A stretch of DNA of 59,440 bases from a virus (Duplodnaviria; Caudoviricetes), in the IMG/VR virus record IMGVR_UViG_3300031788_000016, positions 1-59,440 of that record; one strand, given 5' to 3'. Below the pieces are notes generated by a model that saw only the letters and a list, made by a program, of their open reading frames with translations, was not told the origin of the DNA and made no database searches. The translations under genes and the position numbers were made by a program. Positions 30,117 to 45,824 of this stretch are shown here, one piece after another. The number at the start of each line of letters is the position of its first letter. Positions within the stretch are counted from its first letter, which is position 1.

Positions 30117-30623
30117 CTACGTACCGAGTTTTCTTTCGCGATACGCAATATGCGCGAGTCTGTTGCCTTCACGGCAAACGTCACACCGGCATTTGTAATA
30201 GCTATACGCGTTCTTGGTCCCATGCACCAACCCAGTTTTAGGTGTGCTTTGCCCGGTGTGACCGTTTTCCTTCTTCCACTTTTTCATATATTCGTTCTTG
30301 GCCGCGCGGCAGATCTCGCAATGGCAATACCGGTAGGATGAAAGCGTACCGTGTGTGCCTTTTGCGGTTGTTTGTTCTTGCGTAGTCTTCTCTCTATGGT
30401 GTGAATAGCACAGCAATTGGCATTTCTTTAATTCCGCTACGAGCACGACCCAGCGGCTTCCGCACATATGGCTAACGTCGAATTCTTTCATTTCTGGGTC
30501 TACGTGATCGATCTGAAGACGATCGCTCGATCCACACTTCACACACCGACCGCCTAGATGGTCGATGATTCTGTTCATTCGCTTGACGTATCCTGCTCTT
30601 GCCTTCTCTTTTGAAATCTTCAT
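30117..30623 (-). CDS. HNH endonuclease with two HGT-x-Y-x-CxCxxC Zn motifs
   Basis: CVKCGSSDRLQIDHVDP...KCQLLCYSHH; low GC; leaderless promoter TTGATT-N16-TATCAT-N6-ATG. Confidence 0.9.
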   Translation of the reverse strand: MKISKEKARAGYVKRMNRIIDHLGGRCVKCGSSDRLQIDHVDPEMKEFDVSHMCGSRWVVLVAELKKCQLLCYSHHREKTTQEQTTAKGTHGTLSSYRYCHCEICRAAKNEYMKKWKKENGHTGQSTPKTGLVHGTKNAYSYYKCRCDVCREGNRLAHIAYRERKLGT

Positions 30624-30665
30624 GCTCCCATGATACGGAAGCTGCTCTACTAATCAAGCTAAACC

Positions 30666-30739
30666 GCCCCTATACCTCAATGGTCGAGGACCTGTTTCGT
30701 AAACAGGCTATGTGGGTTCGATTCCCACTGGGGGCTCCA
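30666..30739 (+). tRNA. tRNA-Thr(CGT)
   Basis: Canonical cloverleaf; CCTGT-TT CGT AA-ACAGG; encoded CCA. Confidence 0.92.
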
Positions 30740-30759
30740 CCCCAAACGAGAAAGAAAGT

Positions 30760-31200
30760 ATGCCGAATCCATTCGAACATCCGCACTGGGAGCCGGACGA
30801 CGGACACAAACTCATCGCATTCGGAATGATGGACGACATCGTCGAGTTCCTGAAAAACGACAATGATCCGAAGATGCTGGAGCACATTCCTCCGGCCGTC
30901 CAAAAAGCCGCCAAGCTGGTGGCCCATGGAATCGAACAGGGCCATTCCGCTGACTGCGGCCACTGCATGGTCGGCCACCTCGTCTGGAACGCATTCGAGG
31001 TGTTCTGCGAACGCATCCGCCCAGGCGGATGGGATGATGAAGACGTGAACGCGGCGACGCTCTTGGTGAAGCTGATACTCAAGCTCACCAAGGAAGAACC
31101 CGCCAACCCGTGCGATGTCACCATCGTCCGTTCCTATTTCAAAGCTGGCACAGATCTGGGTCCGATCGCGGACTACAACCCGGAGCCGTGCCCGAACTAG
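30760..31200 (+). CDS. Hypothetical protein
   Basis: ATG 30760; HSADCGHC motif; TAG stop. Confidence 0.75.
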   Translation: MPNPFEHPHWEPDDGHKLIAFGMMDDIVEFLKNDNDPKMLEHIPPAVQKAAKLVAHGIEQGHSADCGHCMVGHLVWNAFEVFCERIRPGGWDDEDVNAATLLVKLILKLTKEEPANPCDVTIVRSYFKAGTDLGPIADYNPEPCPN

Positions 31201-31239
31201 CCTTCAGCCTCTTTAACAATCCAAACCCACGGAGTATTC

Positions 31240-31893
31240 ATGTCTCTTCCCGACACCTACAAAGGTCTTCTCGGATGTCGCACCGAACCAATGGACATCA
31301 AACTCACCGAACTGTTCATGAAGCTGTTCATGGCGGAGATGGACCCGGCCTTCGAGGCCGCGGTGATGAAAGAGAAGGAAGCCGGACGGCTGCCCGATGG
31401 GGCGAAGATCCTGCTCGGCCGACTCAACTGGTACGGCATCAGACCGAACATGGCACTGACGCTGCTGATCACCGGTATCTGCGATTCGCCCGGCAAGGTC
31501 ATCACCTGGGCCTTCACCTTGGCGATGATCGCCAAGAAGTACAACGTCCCGGTGCTGAAGATTTCGCTGCTCACCAACTGCTTCCCCGATGGATTTCCGG
31601 TCGCGTCGGAATATGAACGCATCTGGCAGGAGCAGAAGATCGGTGGCGGCAACCAACTCGACGATGGTGGCAACTGGCCCGACTTCAATTGGTACGACGT
31701 CTGGGAGGACATCACCGTCCAGGAATTCGCCACCATTCTTCGGCGAGATCATCGGGTGGTGATCGAGGTGCTCATGCAGATGGGCATCGTGGCTGATCCG
31801 GCTTTCAAGATGAAGACGGATCACATCAATCAGTTCCGCGATCTGTGGAAGAAGAAGATCCAGATCAATCCGAAAAAGGACAAAGCAGCATGA
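31240..31893 (+). CDS. Hypothetical protein with C-terminal IF2_N-like domain
   Basis: ITVQEFATILRRDHRVVIEVLMQMGI resembles the IF2 N-domain pattern. Confidence 0.6.
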   Translation: MSLPDTYKGLLGCRTEPMDIKLTELFMKLFMAEMDPAFEAAVMKEKEAGRLPDGAKILLGRLNWYGIRPNMALTLLITGICDSPGKVITWAFTLAMIAKKYNVPVLKISLLTNCFPDGFPVASEYERIWQEQKIGGGNQLDDGGNWPDFNWYDVWEDITVQEFATILRRDHRVVIEVLMQMGIVADPAFKMKTDHINQFRDLWKKKIQINPKKDKAA

Positions 31894-31904
31894 GCAGACC
31901 GGAC

Positions 31905-31938
31905 ACCCGGCCGAAAGGCCGGGTTGTTTTTCTTTTTA
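31905..31938 (+). terminator. Intrinsic terminator ending the plus-strand region
   Basis: ACCCGGCC-GAAA-GGCCGGGT plus T-run. Confidence 0.85.
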
Positions 31939-31951
31939 CTTCCAGCGTGAA

Positions 31952-31986
31952 ACGAAAAACCCAGGCCTACCGCCTGGGTTTTTCGT
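31952..31986 (-). terminator. Terminator of the minus-strand RNA operon (bidirectional shape)
   Basis: Perfect 15-bp stem ACGAAAAACCCAGGC/GCCTGGGTTTTTCGT. Confidence 0.85.
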
Positions 31987-31994
31987 AGTGAGGT

Positions 31995-32234
31995 TCACCG
32001 CCAGCCAGGATCAGGCTTTAGGCCGTCTTCTGGCAAATGTCCGGCAGATGGACGTCGAACCCATTCCCTCTCGAAAGAGGGTATCGCCGCTGGCACGGTC
32101 ATTTTGACATCGCACCAGTTCGAAGCCGCCGGTTACCTCCTTGAGTCCTCCGTGAGAGGCTCGGCAGACGTTGCCCTGGCCGGGGCGCGGTCCACAGAAG
32201 CAAGGATTGGCGAGATCTTAGTGTGGCGGGGTGA
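31995..32234 (-). ncRNA. Unidentified ~240-nt structured RNA with a tRNA-like subdomain
   Basis: 5' and 3' ends pair; 7-bp acceptor-like stem stacked on a T-arm; lies between tRNA-Asn and a terminator. Confidence 0.55.
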
Positions 32235-32244
32235 CTTGACAAGA

Positions 32245-32319
32245 TGGCTCCCAGAGAGGGATTCGAACCCACGACCAACGTGTTAACAGCACGCTGCTCT
32301 CCCACTGAGCTACCCGGGA
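32245..32319 (-). tRNA. tRNA-Asn(GTT)
   Basis: Cloverleaf with loop CT GTT AA, G73 and CCA. Confidence 0.9.
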
Positions 32320-32359
32320 ATGTTTCATCTGGGAGAGACGTCTCTCCCAGACGAGATGA

Positions 32360-32444
32360 TGGTGCGGGCCGAGGGAGTCGAACCCTCTTGGGCGTAGCCG
32401 CCAGGATTACAATCTGGCCCGGAGCCGAGCCGGTCTTTGCCCGC
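32360..32444 (-). tRNA. tRNA-Tyr(GTA)-like, type II, atypical D-arm
   Basis: Acceptor GCGGGC/GCCCGC, loop TT GTA AT, variable arm GGC-TAC-GCC, T-arm GAGGG-TTCGACT-CCCTC, ACCA. Confidence 0.75.
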
Positions 32445-32547
32445 AAAACGAAAAAGCCCGGTCTTTCGACCGGGCTTTTGAAGAGAAGAATGCCTAGAAG
32501 TCCAGGCATAGATCACCCAATCGCCCGGTCTCCCGTGCGATTGTAGC
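32445..32547 (-). promoter_or_regulatory. Attenuator-like leader: TACAAT -10 box, antiterminator segment and intrinsic terminator ahead of the tRNAs
   Basis: Terminator AAAAGCCCGGTC-GAAA-GACCGGGCTTTTT; upstream duplicate GACCGGGC at 32523-32530. Confidence 0.5.
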
Positions 32548-32610
32548 GATAACCAGCGGCCTGAAGCGACATCGGCATGGCCGTACTCTGGCGGTGCTCT
32601 CCGAAAAGTC

Positions 32611-32642
32611 AAAACGAAAACGCAGGCCTCGCGGCCTGCGTT
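32611..32642 (-). terminator. Intrinsic terminator after the IPT/TIG gene
   Basis: AACGCAGGCC-GCGA-GGCCTGCG-TTTTCGTTTT. Confidence 0.8.
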
Positions 32643-32668
32643 GTCGTCGTACTCCGGGAGAAGAAGGC

Positions 32669-33865
32669 TCAGGTGTAGGTGAAGGCCGCGGCGGCGGTGG
32701 CGACCGAACCGCCCGTGCCGGGGTTGGTGACCGCGACCGCGACCGCGCCGGCCGCGCCCGCCGGCACCGTGGCCGTCAGCTGCGTCGAGTTGACGAAGAC
32801 CACCGCGGTGGCCGGGTTGCCGCCCACGGTGACCGTGGCACCCGGCTTGAAGTTCGTGCCGTTGATGGTGATCGAGGTGCCGCCCAGGTGGCTGCCGGTG
32901 GCGGGGATGATCGGCGTGGTGATCGTCGCCGCGGTGACGGTGAGCGCCGCCGCTGCGGTGACGGTGCCGGCGCCGCTGCCGGGGTTGGTGACGACGATCG
33001 CCTTGGCGCCGGCCGAGAGGACAGGCACGGTGCAGGTGATTTCGGTGGGGCTGACCACGACCACGTCGCCGGCCGCGACACCGCCGATGGTGACGCCCGC
33101 GCCGACCACGAAGTCGGTGCCGATGATGGTGACCGAGCCACCGGCGAGATCGACGGTGCTCGGGGTGACCGAGACGAAGGTGGGGGCGACATAGGTGAAG
33201 GCCGCGGCCAGGGTGCCGCTGTACCCGACGCTGTTCTGGACGACGACGGCATAGGGGCCGCCGGCCGCCGCCGCAGGCGCCATGGCGGTGATGGTGTGGG
33301 CGTTGACCCAGGTGACGTTGGTGGCCGCGATGCCGTTGACGGTGACGGTCGCGCCCGGCGCGAAGTCGATGCCCGTGATGGTGAGGAGGGTGCCGGCGAG
33401 ATCGCCCTGGCTGGGCGAGACGCTGACGACGGTGGGGACATCGGTGCTGGGCGTCGGCTCGTAGAGGATCACGCCATTGCCGGTCGCCTGTTCGATCGAG
33501 ACCCAGAAGCGGATGCGCTGAGAGGCGCTGACATCGGTGAGATCGACGTCGATGGAGTCGCTGGCGTTGATGAGCCCGACCTGATCGAGCACGACCGGCG
33601 AGGCGGTCAGGTTCTTGATGCGGACCTTGCCCCAGAGCAGATTGGGCGAGGTGTAGGAGATGACGCCAGCCGCCACCGCGCGCTCGATCGCGTTCCAGCG
33701 GCGCTGCTTGCGCCACTCGGTGTTGATGCCGCTGGCCGAGGTCAGGTCGATCACCGTGGTGCCCGGCGCCAGCGGCGGCAGGTTGTCGACATAGACCGGC
33801 GATGCGCCGGCATTGTGGACGGAGACCGAGGTCGGCAGATCGGGGATCGGGTAGGTGACGGGCAT
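32669..33865 (-). CDS. Virion surface protein with three IPT/TIG (Ig-like) domains
   Basis: Three repeats of P-x-G-x3-GG-x-ITI-x-GT(D/N)F...VTV-x-G...VVV-x-N...FTY. Confidence 0.85.
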   Translation of the reverse strand: MPVTYPIPDLPTSVSVHNAGASPVYVDNLPPLAPGTTVIDLTSASGINTEWRKQRRWNAIERAVAAGVISYTSPNLLWGKVRIKNLTASPVVLDQVGLINASDSIDVDLTDVSASQRIRFWVSIEQATGNGVILYEPTPSTDVPTVVSVSPSQGDLAGTLLTITGIDFAPGATVTVNGIAATNVTWVNAHTITAMAPAAAAGGPYAVVVQNSVGYSGTLAAAFTYVAPTFVSVTPSTVDLAGGSVTIIGTDFVVGAGVTIGGVAAGDVVVVSPTEITCTVPVLSAGAKAIVVTNPGSGAGTVTAAAALTVTAATITTPIIPATGSHLGGTSITINGTNFKPGATVTVGGNPATAVVFVNSTQLTATVPAGAAGAVAVAVTNPGTGGSVATAAAAFTYT

Positions 33866-33915
33866 GGCAATGGGCTCCGGTTACGGCTGGAGTGTAAAAG
33901 GGCTGGAAAGAAAGG

Positions 33916-36900
33916 CTAGGCCACTTCCGAGGGCATGGGCCGCTCGAAGGCGTCATCGACGATCTGATTCTGGCGGAACTTCGCACCGTAGGCGAGGCCC
34001 GCGATCGGGCTGGCATTACCCGTGAGATCGCTCGACCCGGACTGAGACGCGACGTCGCGCACGCTGTCATCGAGACGTTGGAAATTCAACCGCGAGAGGA
34101 GGTCTTTCGATTCGAGCGGCTTGTAGCCGAGACCGAGCAGCACCGGCTTCGCGGTGATCTTCGGATTGCGCATGTGGCGCAGATTGAATTCGTTCTCGTG
34201 CATCACGTCGCCGATGGCGAGATCCGGCTCGCCGCCATCGTCGGTGATCTCGACGGTGCGCATCATGCCGGCGGCGATCACTTCGATCACCGGCTTGCGC
34301 ACGACTGCGCCGGCGTCTGCGTAGCTCTTGCGGATCTGATTGACGACGTACTTCTGCGCCGCCAGCGCGCCTTGCGAGGCCGCGATCTCGCGCGGATCGA
34401 AATTGCCCGTCGAGATGGGCTGGCCGATGTCCACCATCTGATCGTGCTTCACGATGACATCACGGCCCTGCAGGATGTGGTGCTCGACCGGTTCCTGGTC
34501 CGGCGCCTGGATGTAGACGAAGCTGCCGCCCTGCGGCGCCGCGCGGATGTCGGTGACGCGGCCGGTGACCGTGGCGAGGCCGCCCTGGTTCTTGATGGTG
34601 CTCGGCACCGCGAGCAGTTCGTGCAGGCGTTGGAAGCCGGCGCTCAGGCTGTCGCCAGAGCCCACCGTGCCGCCGGAGTGGAAGCTCTTCAGCATCAGCT
34701 GAGTGGATCGCTCAGACACGGTCTGACCGTAGTTGTAGCCGATGTTGGATCCAAGCGGATGCAGCTGTCCGTTCGCATCACGTCCCGCGCACATCTGACA
34801 GGGAACATGAACGGCGGCACAGGTGAGCGGGGAGCGGACGCGCACAATTTCCATTCCGGCGTCGCGCATCTTTGCCAGGATCTCAGGCGTGACGGGGTCA
34901 TTCCGCTTCGCAATTCCAGGCACATCTTCAAGAAGATGGCGATCAAGAAGATCGACATCTGGTTCAGAGAGTTGTTCGTCGAGGCCGTTGTGGGTTCCAC
35001 AGTCGCGCTCCATGATGCGGATATCGCCCATGTTACCGGCGATCTCCTTGGCGAGGAAGCCCGGCATGGCGACGGAGAGGCCCTTGGCCACCATTCCCTT
35101 ACGCGCGCCGGGCGTGACCATGATGTAGTCGCTCGGGCGCATGCCCATGGCATAGCTGGAGCGGATGACGCCGGGCACGATCTGGTCGTGCACGTCGGTC
35201 ACCATGACCGGCGAGGCGAGCATCTGCTTCAGCTGATCGAGCTTCTTGTTCGAGCCGCTCTCGATGAAGCTGTGGTAGCCGAGGTCGATCTTGCCGAGGT
35301 GGTCTTTCACCTCGTCGATCAGCTGGCTGTCGTACTTCTTCGAGAGGCCGTAGAGCGCCTCCTGATCCTTCGGATCGGTATTGGCGACGTCTTTGTCCAG
35401 TTGCTTGAGCAGCCGGTCGATCTTGGTGCGGTCCACCACGAGTTCTTTGATCGAGGCGGTGATGCCGCCCGCCGCAGCCGCGGCGCTGAACCCCGCGGAA
35501 GCGATTTTCCGGGAAAGATTGTTGTAGTCGGCGGGCGACTTCTCGGCGATCGTCGTCAAAATCTTTTCGAGCTTCTTGCCGTCGATGGGAGCCGAGACGC
35601 CCATCATGAAACGAGCCGGCACGATCTCTTCGAAGATCAGCCAACCGATCGCCACCTGAGTGGGCTGTCCCTTGATCTTGACGAGGCTGCCCATCTGCAG
35701 GCTCGAATCTTTGTTGCTGCGGTAGGCGTCGATCGCATCGTCCGCAGAATCGAAGGTCTTGCCAGTCGGCGTGCCGGGTTTGGTCAGCGCGAAGATGCCC
35801 GAGATGACGTCTTTCGAAACGCCGAACGCGAGGCTCTTGTCTTTGTCATAGAGCAGATTGTTCGTCGGCAGCAGCTTCACCGCTTCGCGCTTGGCGTCAT
35901 CGGTGATCGGCACGAACACCGACATGGTGTCGCCATCGTAGTCGGCGTTGAACGGGCCGACGACGAGCGGGCTGATGCGGACTTCCTTGCCCTCGCTGAT
36001 GCGCGGCTTCGCCGCGAGGATGCTCCAGCGGTGCAGCGACGGCGCGCGGTTGTAGAGGACGAGGCGGTCCTTCATCTCGGCATCGAGATTCTGGCGCGCG
36101 GCCATGGTGCGCTTCTCGACGTGATCCATCGCCTCGGCAGGCTTCCAGCCGCCCTTCGACATGCGGCGGACGACGATGGGCTTGAACAGCTTCCACGCCA
36201 TGTCTTCCGGGATGGCGATCTCGTCAGGGCCGAGAGAAGCGTCGGGCTCGATGGTGGATCGACCGCTGTAGTCGTTGCGGTGGGCGACGACCATGCGCTG
36301 GAACAGGCCCTCTTTGTTGAGCTTGCCCTTGATGACGTCGATGAAGCCCGACGCGTCTTCGCGATCGTCGCGATGCGTCAGCGGATTGTTCACGCCGATG
36401 AGCGCACCGAACGAGGTGTAGAGGTTGTTGCGCGCCGCCTTCATGTGCTCTTCGGGCAGATGCGCGGCCTTGGCGTCCTTCAGCGCGTCATTGGTCAGGA
36501 CGAGGTCGCGGTAGAGGAGATTGCTGTCGGCGATGCGCAGCGACTTGTCGCCCATCTCGATGATGGGGCGGTACTTCGGCGGCACGACTGGCACTACATT
36601 CGTCATGTAGGCGTCGAAAGGCGACAATTTTGACAGCTTGAGGCCACGCAGGTACTTCGTGGCCCGGCTGTATTTGTTCGCGTCGCTGCCCACGGCGGTG
36701 TGGAGCTTCGCTTTGAAATCGTCGAGCTTCTTGTCCACGTCGAAGTCGAGGATCTTCTTGAAGCCGGCCTCGCCCGTCAGCGTGTGCGCGTTCGGCGTCT
36801 CGACGAACTTCCCGGTGCGCGGGTCGTAATGCCGCGTGTGCATGATGAGGCCGTAATAGTCGGCCGTCTTCATCCCCGTCATGTCGCGGATGGTCTTCTC

Positions 36901-39900
36901 GTAGAGCGGATGCGGGATTCTTTCCGCCAACTCGATGTGCGTCCACTTGTCGCCCTTGAGCCCGCCGGTCTTGGCGACGTCGAACAGCCCGCCCTTCTCT
37001 TCGGCGAGGTCTTTCGAGCGGATCAAGCGCGCGCCGGTGATCTCGCCATTCGAGAGAGAACGCACTGTCTTCTCGGTCATCGGCAGGTAGTGGAGGATGT
37101 TGCCCTTCTGCTGCGTGTCGACGCCGGCCGCATTCAGGAAGGCGCGGAACTTCTCGAAGACGAAGGGCACCTTGGGTGGTGGCGGCGTTTCGCCAGCTTG
37201 GTATGCACGCCAGAAATCCTCATTTCGAGTTCCGCGAATACCCGCTGCCTCTCCGAGGATGGCATGGGCATCGTGTCCGAGCAGCGCGTACGTCGTGAGG
37301 TGGTCATAGCTCTGTCCTCCCTTGCCGCCGCCGCGAGTCGGCGTCTCGTCGTAGGTGTAGCCGTCGCGCTCGCGCGCCGAGAACTTCTTCCGCACGGGAT
37401 GGTCGAGTTTGACCATGTAGTTGTAGCCGACGCCGACCGGCTTTTCGAGATACTTTCCGGTCTGCGGATCGAACAGGCGCACGGTGTGGCTGAGCCCCGC
37501 CGCGTCCAAGGCCTTGTCGATCTCGCGGGCGTGATCCTTGCCGTCGAAATTGGCGAACGTGTAGGGCTTTCCGGTTTCGTGCACGAGCAGCCCGGCTGCC
37601 TGCTCGATGGTCTGCGACGGGTTGATGCGGTTGACGATTCCGTGGGTGTTGAGGATGACCTCGATCGGCTTGCCGTCATCGGTGCGCGGCATCTCGGCGT
37701 CGGGGATGATCGCGGCCACAGTGCCCTTGGCGGCCGAAGACATCGACAGCTTGTCGCCGACGCCCATGGGCTCTTCAGTCTGCAGATGCACGTCGATGCG
37801 CGTGCTGCTGCGCAGGACACGGTAGACGGTGGCGGGGAAGTCCTCATTCCAAACCAGCGAGGCGTCCTTGTAGGGGCGCTGCAGGCTCTTGTGGATCTGG
37901 CCCAGGTTCTGTGACGAGCGGTCCTGCTTGTCGAACTCGTTCTTGCGCAGCGCCGCGACCAGGATGTCGCCTGGATCGACGCGCGATCCCTCTTTGACGA
38001 CGCCGGTGTCGTCCAGCTTGGCGTAGTTCGCGCCGGTGTATTTGGTCGGGAACTGCGCGAAGGCCAGCTTCTTGTCGATCACCATGCCGGGCTGGAGTTC
38101 CAGTTCCTCGCGATGGATATGCATCGACGAGAACTTCTCCTTGGCGCTCTCGCTGATGGAGATGGCGTCTTCGAAGTTGAGGCCGTTCTTCCACGGCATG
38201 AAGGCGGTGCGCACGTTGACGCCCAGAGCCAGCTTGCCGTCGCGAGAGTAGTTGCTGTCAGCGAGGAGATCGCCCTTCTTCACCATCTGGCCGACTTTGA
38301 CGACGGGGATGTGATCCAGAGCCACCTTCGCCTGCATCGGATAGTGGTCGAAGAGTTCGTGGCGCACGCCGGCCACCACGATCGCCTGCGGCGACACGCT
38401 CTCGACCTTTCCATCGACCATCGAACGGATCACGAAGGCGCGGGCCAATTCCTCATACACGCTGTTGCCGGCGCCATCGACCATGGAGGCGAGCGGCAGT
38501 TCGCGGTGCACCAGCGGGAGCGCCTGGGTCAGATGCTTGCCGGCCATCATGGCGCGGTTGGCGTGCGTGTGGTCGAGGAAGAGAGCGGCATTCGAGGTGT
38601 TGTCGAACATCGCGCGGCCAGACGGGATGATGTATTCGACCTTCTTCGGGTCGACCATCACGATGTGGCCCTTCTCGTTTGCGCGAACCAGCGTGTCGAT
38701 GGGCTTGCCCTTGTCGTCCCAGTATTCCGGGTAGCCGATGACCGCATCCGAGGCCTGCACCGTGCTCAGCGAGACGGGCTTGTCGTTCTGGTTGACGTGG
38801 CCGCCGTCGACCTTCAAGAAGAAGGAGCGGATCTCGTTGCCGTGCTTCTGTGCGTTGACCGCGAGATGGGTCGTGACGCCCACCGCCATGCCTTCAGGGC
38901 TGTGCACGGGGTCGATGAAGTTGGCAGAGCCGGGGCGGAACAGGCGCGCGTCCTGCGTGATGGCGCGCTCGGTGCCGATGCCGCCCTCGCCCATCACGGT
39001 GATCTTCGAGTTCTCGGAGAGGATCGAGAGCGGGTTCGCTGCTTCAGCGGTGGTCGCCAAGCCGCCTTCGACGTCGTTCGTCCCGCCGAAGAAGGAAACG
39101 GTGGCCGAGTTCAGCCAGCCGTTTCCGAACGCTTTCACCAGTGTGTTCCCTGGTTTCGCGATACGCAGGAGCAGTTTACGCTTGAGGAGGCGCTGGAGAC
39201 GCCGAATGCGCTCGGGGATGAAATCATCGACATGGTAGATGTTCTTGAATTCCACCGAGTCACGGTCGTCCGGCGGTGCCGTGCCACGAGAGACTTCCAG
39301 GATGCGTCGCGATGCTTCGAGGAAGACTCGCGGCGTGATGTAATTGAACGGAGCGCCCAGAGTTTTCTGGGTGGTGTATGCATCGAGCTTGCGGCCCTCA
39401 AGCCACTGCCGGATCGCCACGATCTGTCCCGCCTCATCGACATCATCGAACTCCTTGCTCTTCTCGATCACACCCGCGCGAATGAGATCGCGGTTCTGTT
39501 TGTGCTCCACAACGGAGTGGAACATCTTCGAGACGTCAGAGGCGCGCGCCTTGACGCGGTTCTTGTCCAGGATCTCGTGCGCACCCTTGTCGTTCCCCCA
39601 CACCGCGAGGATGTCGGAGTCGGATACACCAAGAGCGCGCATGATGGCATACCAGCTGACGTTGGACTTGTAGACCTCGATCTTGAAGATCGACGTCTTG
39701 GGCTCCATATACACCTTCAGCTGGCCACTGGGCGTATTGATCCAAGACTCGAACTCGCCGTTGGTCTTCTCCCGGGTGTAGACGCCGGGCTTCATCCGCA
39801 GTTGGTAGGGCTCGAAGTAATCGCTGCCCTTGACCATCATCGTTCCGAGCGCTCCCATGAGAGGCAAGCTGCCGAGATTGAATCCCGGCAGCTTTTGCGC

Positions 39901-40167
39901 GATCTTCCCGTCACGACTCAACGTGATGTCGGCGATGATGCGCCCGCCCACCGTTCTACCAGACTGGCGCGCAGCTTGCCACGCGTTCAACCCATGCGGA
40001 TTGAACTGAGTGTCGTCGACGTGGATACCAGTCGCTTCAATACGGATGGAGCCCTCCTCGATAGGGAAGATGCTCGCGACCGCGTCTATGACATTCTTCT
40101 TCAGCGCATCGTTGACCTGTTCATACCGAAACGAGCGCGCCGGTAGCTGTGCAAATGGGTCGGCCAT
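33916..40167 (-). CDS. rpoBC: DNA-directed RNA polymerase, fused beta-beta' single chain
   Basis: Beta motifs: SPEG, GDKLS..KG, KLDH..KKFSAR. Beta' motifs: GGLFD..HIEL, DYSGRS, NRAPSLH, catalytic NADYDGD, GARKG, TQLMLKSFHSGG. Confidence 0.95.
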   Translation of the reverse strand: MADPFAQLPARSFRYEQVNDALKKNVIDAVASIFPIEEGSIRIEATGIHVDDTQFNPHGLNAWQAARQSGRTVGGRIIADITLSRDGKIAQKLPGFNLGSLPLMGALGTMMVKGSDYFEPYQLRMKPGVYTREKTNGEFESWINTPSGQLKVYMEPKTSIFKIEVYKSNVSWYAIMRALGVSDSDILAVWGNDKGAHEILDKNRVKARASDVSKMFHSVVEHKQNRDLIRAGVIEKSKEFDDVDEAGQIVAIRQWLEGRKLDAYTTQKTLGAPFNYITPRVFLEASRRILEVSRGTAPPDDRDSVEFKNIYHVDDFIPERIRRLQRLLKRKLLLRIAKPGNTLVKAFGNGWLNSATVSFFGGTNDVEGGLATTAEAANPLSILSENSKITVMGEGGIGTERAITQDARLFRPGSANFIDPVHSPEGMAVGVTTHLAVNAQKHGNEIRSFFLKVDGGHVNQNDKPVSLSTVQASDAVIGYPEYWDDKGKPIDTLVRANEKGHIVMVDPKKVEYIIPSGRAMFDNTSNAALFLDHTHANRAMMAGKHLTQALPLVHRELPLASMVDGAGNSVYEELARAFVIRSMVDGKVESVSPQAIVVAGVRHELFDHYPMQAKVALDHIPVVKVGQMVKKGDLLADSNYSRDGKLALGVNVRTAFMPWKNGLNFEDAISISESAKEKFSSMHIHREELELQPGMVIDKKLAFAQFPTKYTGANYAKLDDTGVVKEGSRVDPGDILVAALRKNEFDKQDRSSQNLGQIHKSLQRPYKDASLVWNEDFPATVYRVLRSSTRIDVHLQTEEPMGVGDKLSMSSAAKGTVAAIIPDAEMPRTDDGKPIEVILNTHGIVNRINPSQTIEQAAGLLVHETGKPYTFANFDGKDHAREIDKALDAAGLSHTVRLFDPQTGKYLEKPVGVGYNYMVKLDHPVRKKFSARERDGYTYDETPTRGGGKGGQSYDHLTTYALLGHDAHAILGEAAGIRGTRNEDFWRAYQAGETPPPPKVPFVFEKFRAFLNAAGVDTQQKGNILHYLPMTEKTVRSLSNGEITGARLIRSKDLAEEKGGLFDVAKTGGLKGDKWTHIELAERIPHPLYEKTIRDMTGMKTADYYGLIMHTRHYDPRTGKFVETPNAHTLTGEAGFKKILDFDVDKKLDDFKAKLHTAVGSDANKYSRATKYLRGLKLSKLSPFDAYMTNVVPVVPPKYRPIIEMGDKSLRIADSNLLYRDLVLTNDALKDAKAAHLPEEHMKAARNNLYTSFGALIGVNNPLTHRDDREDASGFIDVIKGKLNKEGLFQRMVVAHRNDYSGRSTIEPDASLGPDEIAIPEDMAWKLFKPIVVRRMSKGGWKPAEAMDHVEKRTMAARQNLDAEMKDRLVLYNRAPSLHRWSILAAKPRISEGKEVRISPLVVGPFNADYDGDTMSVFVPITDDAKREAVKLLPTNNLLYDKDKSLAFGVSKDVISGIFALTKPGTPTGKTFDSADDAIDAYRSNKDSSLQMGSLVKIKGQPTQVAIGWLIFEEIVPARFMMGVSAPIDGKKLEKILTTIAEKSPADYNNLSRKIASAGFSAAAAAGGITASIKELVVDRTKIDRLLKQLDKDVANTDPKDQEALYGLSKKYDSQLIDEVKDHLGKIDLGYHSFIESGSNKKLDQLKQMLASPVMVTDVHDQIVPGVIRSSYAMGMRPSDYIMVTPGARKGMVAKGLSVAMPGFLAKEIAGNMGDIRIMERDCGTHNGLDEQLSEPDVDLLDRHLLEDVPGIAKRNDPVTPEILAKMRDAGMEIVRVRSPLTCAAVHVPCQMCAGRDANGQLHPLGSNIGYNYGQTVSERSTQLMLKSFHSGGTVGSGDSLSAGFQRLHELLAVPSTIKNQGGLATVTGRVTDIRAAPQGGSFVYIQAPDQEPVEHHILQGRDVIVKHDQMVDIGQPISTGNFDPREIAASQGALAAQKYVVNQIRKSYADAGAVVRKPVIEVIAAGMMRTVEITDDGGEPDLAIGDVMHENEFNLRHMRNPKITAKPVLLGLGYKPLESKDLLSRLNFQRLDDSVRDVASQSGSSDLTGNASPIAGLAYGAKFRQNQIVDDAFERPMPSEVA

Positions 40168-40188: not shown

Positions 40189-40371
40189 TCAGTCCGGCTC
40201 GCCAGCGGGCTCGGGAGGCAGTTGGATCGGCTCGCCCTGGATCACAGGCTCACCGTATCTGACCGAGACGCCGACGACAGCGTGCTCGGTGACGCCGCCG
40301 CAGTGGCACATCGAGCCGGGCATGACGCCGCCGTAGATGGTTCCGCAGGCCTTGCAGCGAGAGAGGCTCAT
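40189..40371 (-). CDS. 60-aa Zn-ribbon protein
   Basis: TGATG coupling to the upstream gene; CKAC-x12-CHC. Confidence 0.6.
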   Translation of the reverse strand: MSLSRCKACGTIYGGVMPGSMCHCGGVTEHAVVGVSVRYGEPVIQGEPIQLPPEPAGEPD

Positions 40372-42836
40372 CAGTTCCCTTTCAGATTCACGGTGGGCGT
40401 CGTGACGCCGAGCGTGGTCGGTGGCGTCGGGGCGGAATCGCTCCCGTCGTAGTCGTAATACTTCTGCGAGACCGCCTGGAAGTTGCCGCGGTTGATGTAG
40501 GCCGTTTGGTTGGCCTGCGTCTGCGTGGCCGTCACGCTGCCGGGCGCATTCGTGGGCGTGGTGCAGAGCGTGCTGAAGTCGAGATTCAGAAGCTGGTTGA
40601 TCTGATCGATGACGTTCAGCAGGCGCTGAAGACGATCGTTGTCTATGCACTTCTTACCGACCGCGGGGATGCCATCGAACGTGCCCATCGAGATGGTCTG
40701 CGAATCGGCGATGTCGTAGCTGTCCTGCACCTGATTCAACACGTTGTTCGCGATCTTTGAGATCACCGGGTTGTCGCAGTTGAGTACCAAGCACTGCACC
40801 GCTTTGATCAGCGTGTCGAGAGCGGACGAGCTTTGGCCATTCGTTCCGAGCAGGCGACTGAGATCTGCTGTCTTGAGCGTCTCGTACAGATCCGAGAACT
40901 GGGTGGCGAGGCCGGCGATGTTCTCTTCGATGGCCACGGCATCCGAAGCCACGGACAGCGCGACTTCCAGCTGCCCGATTCCAAGGCCGAGGTGGCTCTT
41001 CATGCAGTAGAGGAACGTCTCGCGCTGCTTGATGGCGATATTCAGCGCAGTGGCCGCGGCCTGCAGATCGGTCGTGCTGTTGATGGCATTCGAGGGATCG
41101 TCGATCGAGCGGCGATTCGAATGGTTCTGGCACGCCAGGAGGAAGTTGTCGATGAGCGTGATCACCACTGCGCCGCCCTGCGGGTCGCCACAGGGCGTGA
41201 CGTCGAAGAGATCGATGATGGCCTGCAGTTCGGCAGCGAAGCCCTGCTGCACGTCGAGGATGTCCTGGATGATGTTGAAGATCTTCGGAATGGTGTTCAT
41301 CAGCGGGCACAGCACCGCCAGGATCGAATAGGCGCCGACCATCGACGAGATGTATGTCCATACGTCGGTCTTCGGCTGTGCCGGGATGGCGTTTGCGGCC
41401 GCAAGCCGCTGGCGCGCATAGTTGTTCACGTTCACATAGAACTGCTGCAACTGATCCTGCGAGGCCGTCGTGGTCACCAGGGCCTCGCCCTGCTGCTTGA
41501 TGTAGGTCGCGATGTCCTTGTTCGCCGCAGCCTGCGCCGTGATCTGATTCAGCGAGCCTGCAGGATCACCGCTCTCCAGCTGAATGCGCAGCGCAGAGAT
41601 CTGCATTTGGATGACGTTGATGATCAACGAGAGCATCTCGCCGAGCGGCAGCTGCTCCAACGACTTCAGCAGCGCGACGGCGTTGATGATGTTGTTGTAA
41701 AGCGTGAGGATGTACTGGTCTTCGATCTTCAGCTGGTTGCGTAGGAACTGGAGTTCCGCGCAGGCCAGCCGGAAATTGATGCCAGGGAGGACCTGGGCGA
41801 GGCTGGAGTTGAGGAAGGCTTGGAGATCGGTGACCTTGATGCCATTGATGCCGATGAACGACTCCAGCGAATCGGTGGCGCCGGTGTAGATCGTGTCCTT
41901 GGCATGGCAGACGTGCGCGGTGGCGTCTTGCAGCGTCGCGCGATCGAAGACGCCCTGCGTGCGCAGCTTCCGTGACACGATCCGGAGATCCCGGTCGGCG
42001 ATGCAGAGATCGTTCAGCAGCGACGTATTGGCCAGCGAGACGTCGATCTGCGCCGGGATGAAGCTGGCTTGCTGGAAGCACGTCGAGACTGCGCCACGGA
42101 TCTGCTTGAGATACGTCAGTTCGGTGTCGATCGCCGGAATGCCGTGCTTGAAGGCAAAGAGATAGATCGCCCGCATGTTCCCTTCGGCGTTCGGGCTAAA
42201 GAAAAGAGATTTGCCGACCAGCATGACCTGATCGACGTATTGGGTGATGAGTGATTGGTCAGCCGGGTTTGAATCCGGCGAGAGCGGCTGGATCGTGGCG
42301 TCGTAAAGCGTGCCGAGAGATTGCTGCAGCGTGGCCTGCTGCAACTTGAAGATCGCGGTCAGCGGATCCGACAGGGCATCCGTCACCGAATTTATCATCG
42401 TGTCGAGCACGCTGCTGCCCGATGTCGGCCCGCCGGTCGCACCGTTATTCGGGATCAGGATGTCTTTGAAGAGATCGTAGGTATCGGTGATCGGCTTCGT
42501 CATCGCCGCCGAGAGCTTTGTCGAAGACGCGCTCTGGCCGCTGTAGAAGCTGGTGATCGAGAGCGCGCTCTGCGCCAGTCCGGTGAGGCAGCCGAGAAAT
42601 CCTTCAGCAGGGACAAGTCCGTCCGCGGTCTGCACTCCGTCCAGCTGATTGTTGACGGCGGTGACGCCGGCCAACACCTCCGTTGTGCCGCCAACACCGG
42701 TGGCCATGCCCTGCATGATTCCGAGTTCCGTCGCGGACGGCGCCGGCGTATATGCCGGGCCTGGAAGGCTTTCCGGCGCGACAACGCCGGGGTACCCGAC
42801 ATTGCTCCCCGGTGGGACGTAGGGAGCAGCGGTCAT
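40371..42836 (-). CDS. Large hypothetical (probably virion) protein
   Basis: 821 aa, helical; ATGA overlap with the sigma gene. Confidence 0.8.
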   Translation of the reverse strand: MTAAPYVPPGSNVGYPGVVAPESLPGPAYTPAPSATELGIMQGMATGVGGTTEVLAGVTAVNNQLDGVQTADGLVPAEGFLGCLTGLAQSALSITSFYSGQSASSTKLSAAMTKPITDTYDLFKDILIPNNGATGGPTSGSSVLDTMINSVTDALSDPLTAIFKLQQATLQQSLGTLYDATIQPLSPDSNPADQSLITQYVDQVMLVGKSLFFSPNAEGNMRAIYLFAFKHGIPAIDTELTYLKQIRGAVSTCFQQASFIPAQIDVSLANTSLLNDLCIADRDLRIVSRKLRTQGVFDRATLQDATAHVCHAKDTIYTGATDSLESFIGINGIKVTDLQAFLNSSLAQVLPGINFRLACAELQFLRNQLKIEDQYILTLYNNIINAVALLKSLEQLPLGEMLSLIINVIQMQISALRIQLESGDPAGSLNQITAQAAANKDIATYIKQQGEALVTTTASQDQLQQFYVNVNNYARQRLAAANAIPAQPKTDVWTYISSMVGAYSILAVLCPLMNTIPKIFNIIQDILDVQQGFAAELQAIIDLFDVTPCGDPQGGAVVITLIDNFLLACQNHSNRRSIDDPSNAINSTTDLQAAATALNIAIKQRETFLYCMKSHLGLGIGQLEVALSVASDAVAIEENIAGLATQFSDLYETLKTADLSRLLGTNGQSSSALDTLIKAVQCLVLNCDNPVISKIANNVLNQVQDSYDIADSQTISMGTFDGIPAVGKKCIDNDRLQRLLNVIDQINQLLNLDFSTLCTTPTNAPGSVTATQTQANQTAYINRGNFQAVSQKYYDYDGSDSAPTPPTTLGVTTPTVNLKGN

Positions 42837-43576
42837 TTGCCGCCCATATATTGATGCAGCTTCTTCGCGATGGACGTGCGCAGCTGTGAGACGCGGCCGG
42901 CGGAGAGCGCCAGCTTCTTCGCGATTGCATTGTTCGTCATCTTCGTGCGCCCATGAGCGCCGAGGCTATAGTCGAAGACGTTCTGCTCGTCGGGCGTCAA
43001 CGAGTAGTAGGCCATCATGGCGCGTTCGTAGTCAGCATCATGTTCGAACTGGGTAAGGTCGTCGACTCCTCCTCCGAATTCGAGCAGATCCTTTCGCATG
43101 AGACCCTGCAGATCAACGACATGAGAGACGGGCACACCGATATGGTCCGCGATCTCGTGCGTCGTGGGCTCACGTCCGAATTTGATATTGAGGTCAGCCA
43201 CCGCTTCACGGTAGGGTCCGATCTCCTGAATTCTGTGTTCGGGAATGCGGGCCGCGTTCTGGTACTGGCTGACATAGCGGTACAGCTTGTTCTTCACCGC
43301 GGTGGTGACGTAGGTGCCCATGTTCGACGTGCGGGACGGATCGTAATCCTTCAGCGCCTCGACAGCGAAGACGCGGCCCTGCAGTTCGAGCGTGGGCATG
43401 GGCAGCGGTGCGCCGCGAAACGAATTGATCGCCGTGCCGATGGCGCCGCTGAAGTTGTCGAGCAGCGGAACCAGAGCCTCGTCCTTCTCATCCCCAGTCG
43501 CGTTCTTCCATTGCGAATGCAAACGCTGATCCAGGGATCCAGGCGAGGTTCCGGGCAGCGGCATGGGGTCAAACAC
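42833..43576 (-). CDS. Sigma70-family sigma factor (regions 2, 3 and 4)
   Basis: EALKDYDPSR..MGTY, ARIPE, GREPTTHEIADHIG, HTH IAKKLALSAGRVSQL; start set to GTG 43576. Confidence 0.9.
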   Translation of the reverse strand: MFDPMPLPGTSPGSLDQRLHSQWKNATGDEKDEALVPLLDNFSGAIGTAINSFRGAPLPMPTLELQGRVFAVEALKDYDPSRTSNMGTYVTTAVKNKLYRYVSQYQNAARIPEHRIQEIGPYREAVADLNIKFGREPTTHEIADHIGVPVSHVVDLQGLMRKDLLEFGGGVDDLTQFEHDADYERAMMAYYSLTPDEQNVFDYSLGAHGRTKMTNNAIAKKLALSAGRVSQLRTSIAKKLHQYMGGK

Positions 43577-43592
43577 GTGGTCGCCTTGTGGT

Positions 43593-45824
43593 TCAACCGT
43601 TGGTGATGAGGGCCTTGATGCGAGCGGAGATCTGCAGTGCAGCATTCTGCCGGAAGGTGGAGATGGTGCCAGCCTTGCCATCGGGCGCGACAGCGGTGTA
43701 GGCACCATATTGGTTGGCAGCCGGCGTTCCGGTATTGCCCACGAATTGCAGTTGCACCGGCGCGCCGAACAGCGGATTGCCCACCGACGTGCTCTTGACC
43801 AGATTGTCGGGCAGCAGGTTCGCGGCGACTGAATCAGGATCGGTGGTGTTCGTGATCGCCGAGTTAAAACCCTGCAGACCATCGAGCCCGTGGAAGTTGG
43901 CGTATTCAGTGATCGTGACGCCCGGCCGGAACTGATAGCGCAGCATGTTGGTCTGGTAGTCGCCACCGGGCATCGCCATGAGATCGGCGAGCGTCATGTC
44001 CGACGATTCGCTCTGCGGGAAGAGGCCGCTCGGATCATAGGTGGGCGAATTGAGCAGCACCTGAGCCAGCACATCGAGATTCACCTGTTGCGGTGCGAAC
44101 TCCGCTGCCGGCGATTGAGTCGTCTGGATCAAGGTCTGGGGCACCATAGCCGCGTGCGCACCAAGCCCGAAGCCAGGGAATGCCACCGAGGGGAAGTTCG
44201 TGCCGAAGAGCTTGGAATAGGTCGCGTCGATGTTGCCGGCCCAGAAGGCAGAGTTCACCCACGACGGCATCGGCGAATGGCGCTGCTTGCCAGGGACGAC
44301 ATATGACTCGCGGATATTTCCGATCAAGACGGTCGTCGACGCGCGCCCAGTGGCCTGGAGCGTGTGCGTGAGGCTGGCGACGATGCCATAGAACGGCCCG
44401 GTGGGATCTTCCACCAAGCACGGGAAGCCGGCGACGAGATATGGCAGGAAGGCGCAGTTCACCTGGGTGCTTCGCACCGCAGAGCGCGCGAGATCGAAGT
44501 GATAGCGGACACACGCCATCATGTAGTTGATCACGCTGTTCTGCTGCACCTGGGAATAGCCAGAGGTAGATGGCGAGGTGCCGGGCTTCGTGGCCGCGAG
44601 CTTGGCCAGCGTGTTCTCGATCGAGATGTTCCCGGGCGACGCCGGGATGATGCCCTTGTAGAGTTCTTCCGGCGACGGATAGCCATGCGTGACGATGGTG
44701 CTCGCGCCGTTCTTCGACGTGTCCATGTTGGCTACGGTCGGATCGTAATTCAGCTGCGCCTGGAACTCCGAGTTCTCGACCGACGTCGCCAAGACGAACG
44801 CCGGGATTTGAAGGCCGCCGGCCAGGGCCGACCCCGGCTGCGCGTAGACGCGCGTCGGCTCGCTGAGATAGCTGCGCGTCATGTCGAAGTCGGTGACTTG
44901 GCTGCGGAAGATGACGTTGCAAGCCGGCGGCACGACGTTGAGAAGATTGGGAACGAAGAGCAATTCGGCGAGGACAGATCCGCTGTCCAGCTGCGAAGAC
45001 TGCTGTGAGCTGGAATCGCCGAGCCCGAGGCTGGCCTGGACGTCATCGATCGCCGTCGCGACCTGCAAGAACTGCTGTGCGTTGGACGAGATCAGCGGCG
45101 GATTCAGGATCGGCGTGTGATGATACAGGATCATCGCCTCGATCTGTTGGAGCACAGAACTCAGTTGCTGATCGGTGGCCATGTTCAGCAATTGATTCTT
45201 CAGCAGGCTGTCGGTCAGTTCTCGCGACAGCAGCTTCTGGATCTCCAAATCGTCGATCGTGAAGACCTTTTTGTTGATGTACCGGGCGAAGTGGTAGAAC
45301 GAGTCCACCGCGCTCTGCTGCATGAACGCGTCGATGATGTTCAAGAGAATGAAGTTGATGCTGGCGTCGGATGCTTGGGATTGGCTGACCGCGGTATCGA
45401 TGAATCCAGCGAGAGTGGTGCCCAACAGATTGCTCTGCGCGCCGCACGACACGTTCAATCCGTTCACGACGAGAGACGACAGCCCTCCTGGATTGGTGGC
45501 GCCAAGAACCGAAGCGATCTTCACGCGATCCCACATCGAATGCAGGCCGCGGAAGATCAGCGTGCGCCGGCGTTTGCTGTCGGCCGCTTTTGATTTGGAA
45601 TAGCCGGTGTATTCGCCTTCGACCATGAAGCGCCACACGTTGGTGACCGGGTCGGAGTAGAAGATGGCGCAGTGCGATCGCGCCGGCAGCAGATCCCATT
45701 CGGCCACTGCAGGCACATCGACAGAGAAGGTGACGAGGCCACCGTCCTGCGCGGTGACAGAGACGGAAGCCGGGTCGAAGCGAACGCCGTTGATGTAGGC
45801 AACAACGGCAATGTTCTTGGCCAT
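43593..45824 (-). CDS. Putative baseplate hub/tail protein
   Basis: Beta-rich N-terminus (AYINGV..VSV..FSVDVP) and PYLVAGFP...YGIVASLTH hub-like C-terminal barrel; tail-module context. Confidence 0.55.
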   Translation of the reverse strand: MAKNIAVVAYINGVRFDPASVSVTAQDGGLVTFSVDVPAVAEWDLLPARSHCAIFYSDPVTNVWRFMVEGEYTGYSKSKAADSKRRRTLIFRGLHSMWDRVKIASVLGATNPGGLSSLVVNGLNVSCGAQSNLLGTTLAGFIDTAVSQSQASDASINFILLNIIDAFMQQSAVDSFYHFARYINKKVFTIDDLEIQKLLSRELTDSLLKNQLLNMATDQQLSSVLQQIEAMILYHHTPILNPPLISSNAQQFLQVATAIDDVQASLGLGDSSSQQSSQLDSGSVLAELLFVPNLLNVVPPACNVIFRSQVTDFDMTRSYLSEPTRVYAQPGSALAGGLQIPAFVLATSVENSEFQAQLNYDPTVANMDTSKNGASTIVTHGYPSPEELYKGIIPASPGNISIENTLAKLAATKPGTSPSTSGYSQVQQNSVINYMMACVRYHFDLARSAVRSTQVNCAFLPYLVAGFPCLVEDPTGPFYGIVASLTHTLQATGRASTTVLIGNIRESYVVPGKQRHSPMPSWVNSAFWAGNIDATYSKLFGTNFPSVAFPGFGLGAHAAMVPQTLIQTTQSPAAEFAPQQVNLDVLAQVLLNSPTYDPSGLFPQSESSDMTLADLMAMPGGDYQTNMLRYQFRPGVTITEYANFHGLDGLQGFNSAITNTTDPDSVAANLLPDNLVKSTSVGNPLFGAPVQLQFVGNTGTPAANQYGAYTAVAPDGKAGTISTFRQNAALQISARIKALITNG

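Follow-up and report, generated by a model that had tools for sequence, protein, structure and literature searches.

The fused polymerase gene

The window analyzed here is the whole of IMG/VR record IMGVR_UViG_3300031788_000016, a stretch of 59,440 bases from an uncultured phage of the Caudoviricetes, and the gene under study, on its minus strand at positions 33916-40167, codes for both beta and beta' of an RNA polymerase (RNAP) as a single polypeptide. As seen in the list of open reading frames (ORFs) and in the translation, the frame is uninterrupted over 2,083 amino acids (aa), with the stop codon within these coordinates. The record is around 33% complete, so the genome of the phage would be of roughly 180 kb.

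The identity of the protein was studied by searches against Pfam, the Protein Data Bank (PDB) and PHROG. Pfam Rpb2 domains 2, 3 and 6 were found within residues 147-935 and Rpb1 domains 1, 2 and 5 within residues 1189-1976, and the top phmmer matches in PDB were a bacterial beta' (8x6f_D, 3e-87) and a bacterial beta (1iw7_C, 4e-72). The PHROGs named "RNA polymerase beta subunit" reached at best 7e-25, and phrog_25354 reached 1e-90. The gene is real and intact, and its product is, judging from these similarities, very probably an active enzyme. An original prediction, made from the sequence of the window alone, had described it as a minimal single-chain beta-beta' RNAP. The single chain of 2083 aa is borne out by the open frame and by the Pfam and PDB alignments, and all the strings quoted in that prediction were located in the protein (junction FLNAAGVDTQQKGNILHYLPMTEKTVRSLSNGEI; GDKLSMSSAAKG at residues 804-815; NADYDGD at 1407-1413; GGLFD...HIEL at 1059-1080). 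The word minimal was an overstatement, as 2,083 aa is only around 8% below the smallest bacterial beta plus beta' pairs sampled (2,274 and 2,314 aa, stop-to-stop, for the smallest two of 16); the enzyme is compact rather than minimal. A cellular fusion, that of a Helicobacter locus, is, as had been claimed, much longer, with 2,903 aa stop-to-stop. The parts of the gene are the following, where A1 is an alignment of 27 full-length fusions; the wider motif counts given below come from 74 aligned sequences.

33916-40167, minus strand: complete gene for the RNAP fusion of beta and beta' in one chain, 2,083 aa and the stop codon (ORF; Pfam Rpb2/Rpb1; phmmer against PDB)
37111-40167, minus strand: beta moiety, residues 1-1019 (alignment to Thermus thermophilus beta; PF00562)
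38974-39093, minus strand: rifampicin-pocket region, equivalent to cluster I, residues 359-398 (alignment to T. thermophilus beta)
37867-37947, minus strand: beta flap-tip region, residues 741-767, predicted sigma contact (complex-model interface)
37723-37758, minus strand: double-psi beta-barrel motif of beta, GDKLSMSSAAKG, residues 804-815 (A1)
37075-37110, minus strand: fusion junction, residues 1020-1031, linker of at most 12 residues (ends of homology; conservation in A1)
33919-37074, minus strand: beta' moiety, residues 1032-2083 (alignment to 8x6f_D; PF00623, PF04998, PF04997)
36928-36993, minus strand: short link at the position of the beta' zinc finger, residues 1059-1080 (MAFFT alignment)
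36412-36567, minus strand: clamp helices of beta', residues 1201-1252, where sigma is predicted chiefly to dock (models)
35929-35949, minus strand: catalytic motif NADYDGD, residues 1407-1413 (A1; PF00623, 1.6e-26)
34789-35001, minus strand: second zinc site of beta', C1723, C1783, C1790 and C1793 (conservation in A1)

Both halves can be aligned with bacterial subunits over most of their length. In the phmmer searches against PDB, residues 31-1019 align with positions 49-1100 of the 1119 of T. thermophilus beta, with PF00562 matched at 9.9e-52 over residues 615-935, and residues around 1113-2052 align with positions 158-1166 of the 1207 of the Firmicute beta' 8x6f_D. Since beta homology stops at residue 1019 and that to the beta' N-terminus begins around 1026-1032, the linker has at most some 12 residues; the junction sequence is conserved across the 27 full-length relatives.

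At the catalytic motif, D1409, D1411, G1412 and D1413 are invariant in the 27 fusions, and DxDGD is kept in all 12 variants of the motif among the 74 sequences. NADYDGD in place of NADFDGD, singled out in the original prediction, is present at residues 1407-1413, but is no oddity: the Phe position reads F, Y, A, S, M, L, V or I across the family, so a Tyr there is unremarkable. The replacement of GDKxxGRHGNKG by GDKLSMSSAAKG also holds for this protein, but not as a trait of the family, since GDKLSMSSAAKG was found in 13 of the 27 proteins of A1, all of them at least 51% identical to the query, and remoter fusions retain GDKxxGRHGNKG-type motifs; it is thus confined to the subclade of the window. 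D805, K806 and K814 are invariant in A1, in such a way that both lysines are retained in GDKLSMSSAAKG and only the RHGN part is replaced. The bridge-helix and trigger-loop segments can be aligned to bacterial beta', with the trigger-loop H1830 invariant in A1.

The N-terminal zinc-binding domain of beta' is indeed deleted, as had been proposed. In a MAFFT alignment, the anchors GLF and HIEL enclose a Cys4 block of around 30-32 residues in all 7 of the 7 bacterial proteins, and in none of the 7 fusions shown. The link found in its place carries no Cys in the 12 commonest of its 69 variants (from 74 sequences), and is modelled with a predicted local distance difference test score (pLDDT) of 83-95. 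The second zinc site is kept, C1783 being invariant in A1 and C1723, C1790 and C1793 at least 90% conserved, with DCGT in 53 of the 74 sequences.

The region equivalent to rifampicin cluster I is divergent and has a 5-residue insertion relative to T. thermophilus beta. This segment occurs in 70 variants among 74 sequences, different in nearly every family member, and at the positions taken as equivalent to E. coli D516, H526 and S531 the fusion carries E, E and T. With its pocket remodelled in this way, the fusion is predicted to be insensitive to the drug.

An AlphaFold model of residues 600-1500, built on an alignment of 55 sequences (the window plus 54 of 73 full-length loci), gave a pLDDT of 87.2 and a predicted template modelling score (pTM) of 0.76. 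Compared with bacterial structures, it matched beta' over around 525 columns (TMq 0.46) and beta over 494 columns (TMq 0.42), with the clamp helices at model positions 615-635 and 640-658. The flap aligns with positions 715-815 of T. thermophilus beta. As judged from the models and alignments, the fusion retains both double-psi barrels, the Asp triad that binds Mg, the pair of lysines in beta, the bridge helix and the trigger loop, with the clamp helices, the flap and the second zinc site in place.

The phage family and its known relatives

At least 570 IMG/VR stretches, on contigs of up to 208 kb, encode relatives of the fusion. Among 84 loci fetched from IMG/VR (L004-L087), 73 encode an uninterrupted fusion of 1,950-2,250 aa, and the other 11 are cut at contig ends, exceed 2,250 aa, are of a split type, or have one in-frame stop. 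Of 7,999 candidates in a word-indexed search, 221 proteins reached E <= 1e-10, and the best 120 of these (clusters at 90% identity) are described here: 61 have 1,950-2,250 aa, 28 are longer, and 24 have 1,390-1,720 aa, the size of a protein composed of beta and the N-terminal part of beta' (beta'N). When the beta' half was searched exhaustively, 2,280 representatives (50% identity) matched at E <= 1e-30, cellular beta' included, and 129 of the best 150 have at least 1,900 aa.

Many members of the family measure 2,250-3,260 aa. Intein or homing-endonuclease Pfam families (PF14528, PF05204, PF14890) were detected in 26 of the best 120 proteins, and in the beta'-half search the matches of many relatives break at query position around 394-402, beside the Asp triad; a break next to the catalytic DxDGD points to an intein there. 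Inteins are typical of essential conserved sites. The copy in the window has no insertion at the catalytic motif.

To place the enzyme among cellular ones, a quick IQ-TREE phylogeny of beta (LG+C20, 990 columns) was computed with 17 of the 27 fusions of A1, 3 split-type phages and 16 bacteria of around 10 phyla; Helicobacter, L112, L132, L147, the truncated L007, archaea, eukaryotes and nucleocytoplasmic large DNA viruses were left out of it. The 20 phage rows fall on one side and the 16 bacteria on the other, with a Shimodaira-Hasegawa-like approximate likelihood ratio test (SH-aLRT) value of 100 and a branch of 1.92 + 0.64. The split-type proteins, those of Salmonella phage Arash, of Vibrio phage D69 and of L009, have nested positions among the fusions (unstarred support 92-93), which hints, and only hints, that the full fusion is ancestral. 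A prophage or cellular origin of the gene was considered and rejected, since in a set of 185,579 bacterial and archaeal species 78 of the best 80 loci were ordinary rpoB-rpoC regions, at 23-31% identity; the remaining two were short contigs of metagenome-assembled genomes, of 3.8 and 7.3 kb. The cultured Rhizobium phage RHph_TM30 (L173, NC_070966.1, 208 kb, Kleczkowskaviridae) encodes a stand-alone beta' of 1,127 aa at 155259-158642, which matches query residues 1183-1840 with 28% identity; phages thus include separate, partly fused and fully fused architectures.

The gene most probably belongs to the mReC lineage of Caudoviricetes (Weinheimer & Aylward 2020, Nat Commun), a set of 97 contigs of Caudovirales, drawn from IMG/VR and metagenomes, whose beta and beta' branch deeply (PMC7481178). 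As described there, these are uncultured tailed-phage contigs of up to more than 200 kb, whose subunits can be aligned with COG0085/COG0086, carry NADxDGD and group in a deep clade separate from the cellular RNAPs, with which our beta tree agrees. The window has a large terminase (TerL), a head protein and a protease on the same contig, the strong Pfam and PDB matches, NADYDGD and the separate clade. On the other side, the main text of that paper treats beta and beta' as two subunits, with "fused" applied to crAssphage only, and nowhere in this main text does one read sigma, "alpha subunit" or virion (PMC7481178). The families given for mReC, PF07068 for the major capsid protein (MCP) and PF03237 for TerL (PMC7481178), are not clearly matched in the window, where the head protein has no Pfam match and TerL matches PF05876 at 3.7e-12 and PF03237 at 0.004, below the cut-off.

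The nearest cultured systems are Arash (PMC10585845) and Vibrio phages D69, D148 and D181, whose RNAP belongs to the same clade and has beta fused to beta'. Arash and D69 also share with the group of the window one sigma homologue, no alpha or omega, one RNAP set and a genome of around 181-187 kb. The Arash type differs in being 29-31% identical and in having beta' split after the catalytic barrel, in the form of Gp206, which has 1,525 aa and comprises beta and beta'N, and of Gp216, in which the C-terminal part (beta'C) stands alone with around 610 aa, whereas here the whole beta' is in one chain. The split falls after residue 1484 or so of the query, in a poorly conserved stretch that lacks around 56 residues. 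Cyanobacterial beta' is likewise split, and cyanobacterial chains of its N-terminal part, with 611-620 aa, were matched to the model of residues 600-1500 at TMt 0.64-0.66.

The enzymes of phiKZ and AR9 are also phage-encoded two-barrel RNAPs without alpha or omega, and one of their two sets is injected with the DNA, as described in reviews. In agreement with the original prediction, the same reviews describe their beta and beta' as cut into 2-3 polypeptides each, in two paralogous sets and with no sigma homologue. The window, by contrast, encodes one chain and a sigma factor, and 5 of 5 complete relatives have one set. The phiKZ/AR9 proteins also show far weaker similarity to bacterial enzymes than the fusion does. 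Cellular RpoBC of Helicobacter has the same order of fusion, from beta C-terminus to beta' N-terminus, but consists of full-size bacterial subunits encoded in a cellular genome, and the phage fusion lies in a separate clade. Wolbachia also carries a cellular RpoBC fusion, and such cellular fusions work with alpha, omega and the zinc finger. The crAss-like gp66, YonO and the virion RNAP (vRNAP) of N4 are phage RNAPs that are likewise single large polypeptides; gp66 is delivered from the virion, and none of the three is known to use a sigma-70-family factor. The crAss and YonO enzymes are reported to have no detectable similarity to COG0085/COG0086 (PMC7481178), and N4 vRNAP, which is virion-delivered (PMC13434306), is of the unrelated single-subunit T7-like class according to a review.

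In reviews of 2020, 2021 and 2026, phages with their own multisubunit RNAP are described as lacking sigma, and sigma-encoding phages as lacking RNAP. The lineage studied here breaks that rule, since both are present, and it is common in viral metagenomes, as the IMG/VR counts attest. Full-text literature searches returned no description of a fused beta-beta' enzyme in this phage lineage; papers on moraphages (PMC12619734) and on marine jumbo phages (PMC9123017) were set aside, as they concern other phage groups. The novelty assigned to the gene in the original prediction was too high, as the lineage was published in 2020 as mReC, has hundreds of members and has had a cultured relative with virion proteomics since 2023.

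Sigma factor, alpha and omega, and gene neighbourhood

The features that surround the RNAP gene are these:

42833-43564, minus strand: sigma-70-family factor, 243 aa, ATG at 43564 (Pfam; phmmer against PDB; lengths of homologues)
40371-42836, minus strand: 821-aa protein encoded between the sigma and RNAP genes (a neighbour that the two closest relatives conserve)
43593-45824, minus strand: 743-aa protein directly upstream of sigma (weak relative of Arash gp8)
14282-15970, minus strand: TerL, the landmark downstream of the RNAP gene in the group (phrog_675, 1.7e-47; PF05876)
4033-4953: head protein (PHROG/Pfam searches)
8069-9484: maturation protease (PHROG/Pfam searches)
30117-30623: HNH endonuclease (PHROG/Pfam searches)

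The sigma gene lies 2.7 kb upstream of the RNAP gene, two genes upstream. Its ORF was listed with 377 aa (42833-43966, minus strand, GTG at 43966), which would overlap the upstream gene by around 370 nt and whose first 134 residues, rich in Pro, Arg and Ser, make an implausible N-terminus; homologues have 233-260 aa, and the true start is probably the ATG at 43564. The protein matches Pfam Sigma70_r3 and r4, and residues 193-298 of the long ORF align with regions 2-3 of RpoS (phmmer against PDB). Exactly one sigma homologue was found in each of the five complete relatives that carry the polymerase, and the order o788-o743-sigma-o821-RNAP, where the numbers are protein lengths, is kept in the two closest relatives.

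A complex between polymerase residues 659-1359 and sigma was modelled. Its score was 0.73, whereas the highest among 3 controls was 0.00; of solved complexes, 58 of 80 attained this mark, and of mismatched pairs, 2 of 110, counts that hold only roughly because our own alignments were used. The runs agree in at least 82% of the contacts, with a pLDDT for sigma of at least 78, and in the model sigma touches the polymerase at its clamp helices (1201-1252) and at its flap tip (741-767). The flap-tip interface corresponds to chain 1 residues 142-168 (+599 for fusion numbering), and its partner we infer to be sigma region 4; the contacts of lowest error are between chain 1 residues 621-638 and sigma residues 54-65 and 101-105. 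As core-sigma complexes have been solved many times, passing the controls shows likeness to them, not binding. The pairing with a phage sigma factor put forward in the original prediction is supported by the nearby gene, by its co-occurrence in 5 of 5 complete relatives and by the docking model.

With respect to the other subunits, profile hidden Markov models (HMMs) for alpha and omega (PF01000, PF01193, PF01192) found nothing in the window at E <= 1, and control searches matched 14 of 14 genomes. That the window has no alpha or omega gene, as had been noticed, is therefore correct, but at around 33% completeness this says little alone. The same HMMs found no homologue in any of five complete relatives, with the controls again matching 14 of 14. 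These are three IMG/VR genomes of 208, 198 (terminal repeats) and 194 kb, all rated 100% complete, Arash (181 kb) and Vibrio phage D69 (187 kb), and each of the five has a single RNAP set. A single-chain core with its own sigma and without alpha or omega is, from these sequence comparisons, well supported as a genomic pattern. For the alpha independence suggested in the original prediction, the zero of five is indirect support, although HMMs would miss a very divergent analogue.

Among 30 neighbouring ORFs, Pfam and PHROG gave names only to sigma, TerL, the head protein, the protease and the HNH endonuclease, and none to the large proteins that flank the RNAP. The 821-aa protein had no Pfam, PHROG or Atlas match above chance and no homologue in the five complete relatives; tblastn matches were found in the same position in L006 and L005. 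The 743-aa protein has a homologue in 4 of the 5 complete relatives, which in Arash, Vibrio phage D69 and G002 is placed upstream of sigma at a distance of up to around 3.5 kb, and matches Arash gp8, annotated as a cell wall hydrolase, at E 5e-7 (match inside gp8, Arash record 8089-11586). A 610-aa protein near TerL was considered as a portal, but BLASTP against the Arash portal found nothing.

A terminase homologue was found in 46 of the 91 loci searched, 5.6-7.4 kb past the end of the RNAP gene in the 8 best. The window has 17.9 kb between the two genes, owing to an intervening block of small genes with lower GC content. This block, at 20440-33900, interrupts the RNAP-to-terminase arrangement of the relatives and has a GC content of 0.54-0.57, against around 0.61-0.66 in its surroundings. 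It contains small ORFs on both strands, three tRNAs and the HNH endonuclease, and is enriched in terminator-like hairpins (25 found, 12.2 expected). A 60-nt element occurs there in three copies (21146-21205, 21713-21772, 31905-31964), each with a hairpin rich in GC, a run of T and a conserved tail rich in A/T, which ends in GGAGCTAAAAAGAAG in two copies; it may be a terminator followed by the start signals of the next small gene. GC-rich tandem repeats with periods of 9 and 24 nt, at 3088-3386, 7767-7945 and 10280-10735, lie inside ORFs near the head and protease genes and presumably encode Ala/Pro/Gly-rich repeats.

ARAGORN reported a tRNA with anticodon CTA, of the amber-suppressor type and labelled Pyl, and two odd tRNAs with 2- and 4-base anticodon loops (55149-55224, 54945-55022 and 29563-29636, plus strand, for the CTA and odd tRNAs), together with ordinary tRNA-Thr and tRNA-Asn genes. 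Two relatives have a single in-frame stop in the RNAP gene, TAG in L005 (53% identical) and TGA in L055. In L005 the in-frame TAG affects the RNAP gene only, one of nine genes checked, and TAG readthrough merges no genes convincingly in the window, so that genome-wide stop recoding was rejected; the stops could be due to local suppression or to sequencing error.

A proposed two-polypeptide holoenzyme and its rivals

The best explanation for the whole, and in our opinion a probable one, is that the product of the gene is the catalytic core of a multisubunit RNAP of bacterial type that belongs to the phage itself. The C-terminus of beta is joined to the N-terminus of beta' by the linker of at most 12 residues. 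The alpha dimer normally brings beta and beta' together; in our proposal the covalent tether would take over this job, so that alpha and omega would be unneeded, a step that we regard as somewhat more plausible than its opposite. The 243-aa sigma would, probably, recognize the promoters by docking on the clamp helices and the flap tip, giving a holoenzyme of two polypeptides. There is a reasonable chance, better than even, that this enzyme does without the host polymerase in transcribing the phage genes and is not inhibited by rifampicin. A further step, to which we give slightly less than an even chance, is that core and sigma are synthesized late with the neighbouring large proteins, carried in the virion, and used to start transcription in the next cell.

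Several observations weigh against this proposal. The window is only around one third of the genome, and the absence of alpha is based on HMMs, in such a way that a divergent analogue may lie among the unnamed proteins, or host alpha and omega may be recruited. On the side of the enzyme, Pfam did not detect Rpb1 domains 3 and 4 in the fusion, PF04997 scored 34.3 bits, under the Pfam cut-off of 39.7, and around 56 residues fewer than in Firmicute beta' lie between residues 1485 and 1558. The near-universal RHGN part is lost in the subclade of the window and this, as well as the loss of the beta' zinc finger, could alter or impair function; the activity of every family member is a prediction from sequences and models. 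In the complete relatives the sigma gene is not adjacent to the RNAP gene, and no phage-specific promoter motif emerged from the window, where the repeat search gave only the three-copy 60-nt element. Phages without RNAP also carry sigma factors, which work on the host enzyme according to reviews. Finally, 116 proteins were reported in Arash particles, ribonucleotide reductases and ligases among them, and the authors allow for carry-over of abundant infection-phase enzymes (PMC10585845), apart from which the Arash polymerase is only 29% identical to the fusion and its beta' is split.

The virion is where the proposal meets its strongest rival, namely that the polymerase stays out of the particle, with host RNAP transcribing the early genes and the phage enzyme with its sigma the middle and late ones, in a T7-like manner. 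We consider this a serious contender, somewhat below even. It agrees with the single RNAP set per genome, in contrast to the virion and non-virion sets of phiKZ-type phages, and with the warning of the Arash authors about contamination (PMC10585845). However, in purified Arash particles Gp206 gave the most spectra of all, 3,516, against 1,333 for MCP, with 1,210 for Gp216 and 467 for the sigma Gp10, and gp8 was represented by 44 unique peptides (PMC10585845). The gene of Arash sigma gp10 lies among virion-protein genes, with gp8 two genes upstream, and across the family the RNAP gene is within, and co-oriented with, the packaging and structural (head) block near TerL. Moreover, sigma-70-type promoter sites are not enriched at 20000-34500, in the region of small genes (5 found, 4.5 expected). 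Gene context and the Arash data taken together would favour late expression and packaging. The packaging suggested in the original prediction gains in this way the precedent of a distant relative with RNAP and sigma in its particles, tempered by the carry-over caution and the low identity.

A second rival concerns the assembly of the enzyme: the fused core could still be built on the host alpha dimer, perhaps with omega, the phage providing only beta-beta' and sigma. The cellular fusion of Helicobacter and engineered beta-beta' fusions of E. coli still use alpha. The phage enzyme is clearly of the bacterial type, with matches to beta and beta' of bacteria at 1e-70 to 1e-88, and its beta C-terminal region aligns nearly to the end of T. 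thermophilus beta. Against this stand its identity of only 23-31% to any bacterial enzyme and the very long branch between the clades, with which host-specific alpha surfaces are not expected to be kept across a family from many environments, and the fact that the known phage multisubunit RNAPs, as reviews describe them, function without alpha and bind no host subunits. We therefore regard dependence on host alpha as rather unlikely.

Less probable still, and quite improbable in our view, is that the phage sigma redirects the host core while the fusion uses another, unrecognised initiation factor. Reviews describe sigma factors for the host enzyme as common in large phages without RNAP, and phiKZ/AR9 polymerases as using factors without sequence similarity to sigma. 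In the present group, the single sigma homologue in each of the polymerase-bearing complete genomes, the near adjacency of both genes in the window and its two closest relatives, and the presence of sigma and RNAP together in Arash particles (PMC10585845) argue for the phage sigma as the partner of the fusion, as do the kept clamp helices and flap and the complex model that passes its controls, with the caveat that core and sigma are a textbook pair.

That the gene is an artefact or not of a phage (assembly chimera or frameshift, decaying pseudogene, or mis-binned bacterial rpoBC of the Helicobacter/Wolbachia type) could be thought of from the single stops of L005 and L055, but is already contradicted by the present data, namely the uninterrupted fusion with its conserved junction in most of the independent loci, the terminase, head protein, protease and HNH endonuclease on the contig, the separation of the phage clade from the 16 bacteria, and the much larger size of the Helicobacter fusion.

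Taken to its full extent, the proposed holoenzyme would mean that widespread phages of around 180-210 kb inject the simplest cellular-type transcription machine known, made of a 230-kDa beta-beta' chain and a 27-kDa sigma, without alpha, omega or the beta' zinc finger, both packed in the capsid and independent of the host polymerase, with the tether as an evolutionary substitute for the alpha assembly platform. As a whole this remains doubtful. If true, the lineage would provide a natural minimal model of a bacterial-type RNAP, with one core gene and one sigma gene, in which the dispensability of alpha and omega upon tethering of beta to beta', and likewise the role of the beta' zinc finger, would be directly testable, as well as a compact, probably rifampicin-insensitive and orthogonal transcription module for synthetic biology.

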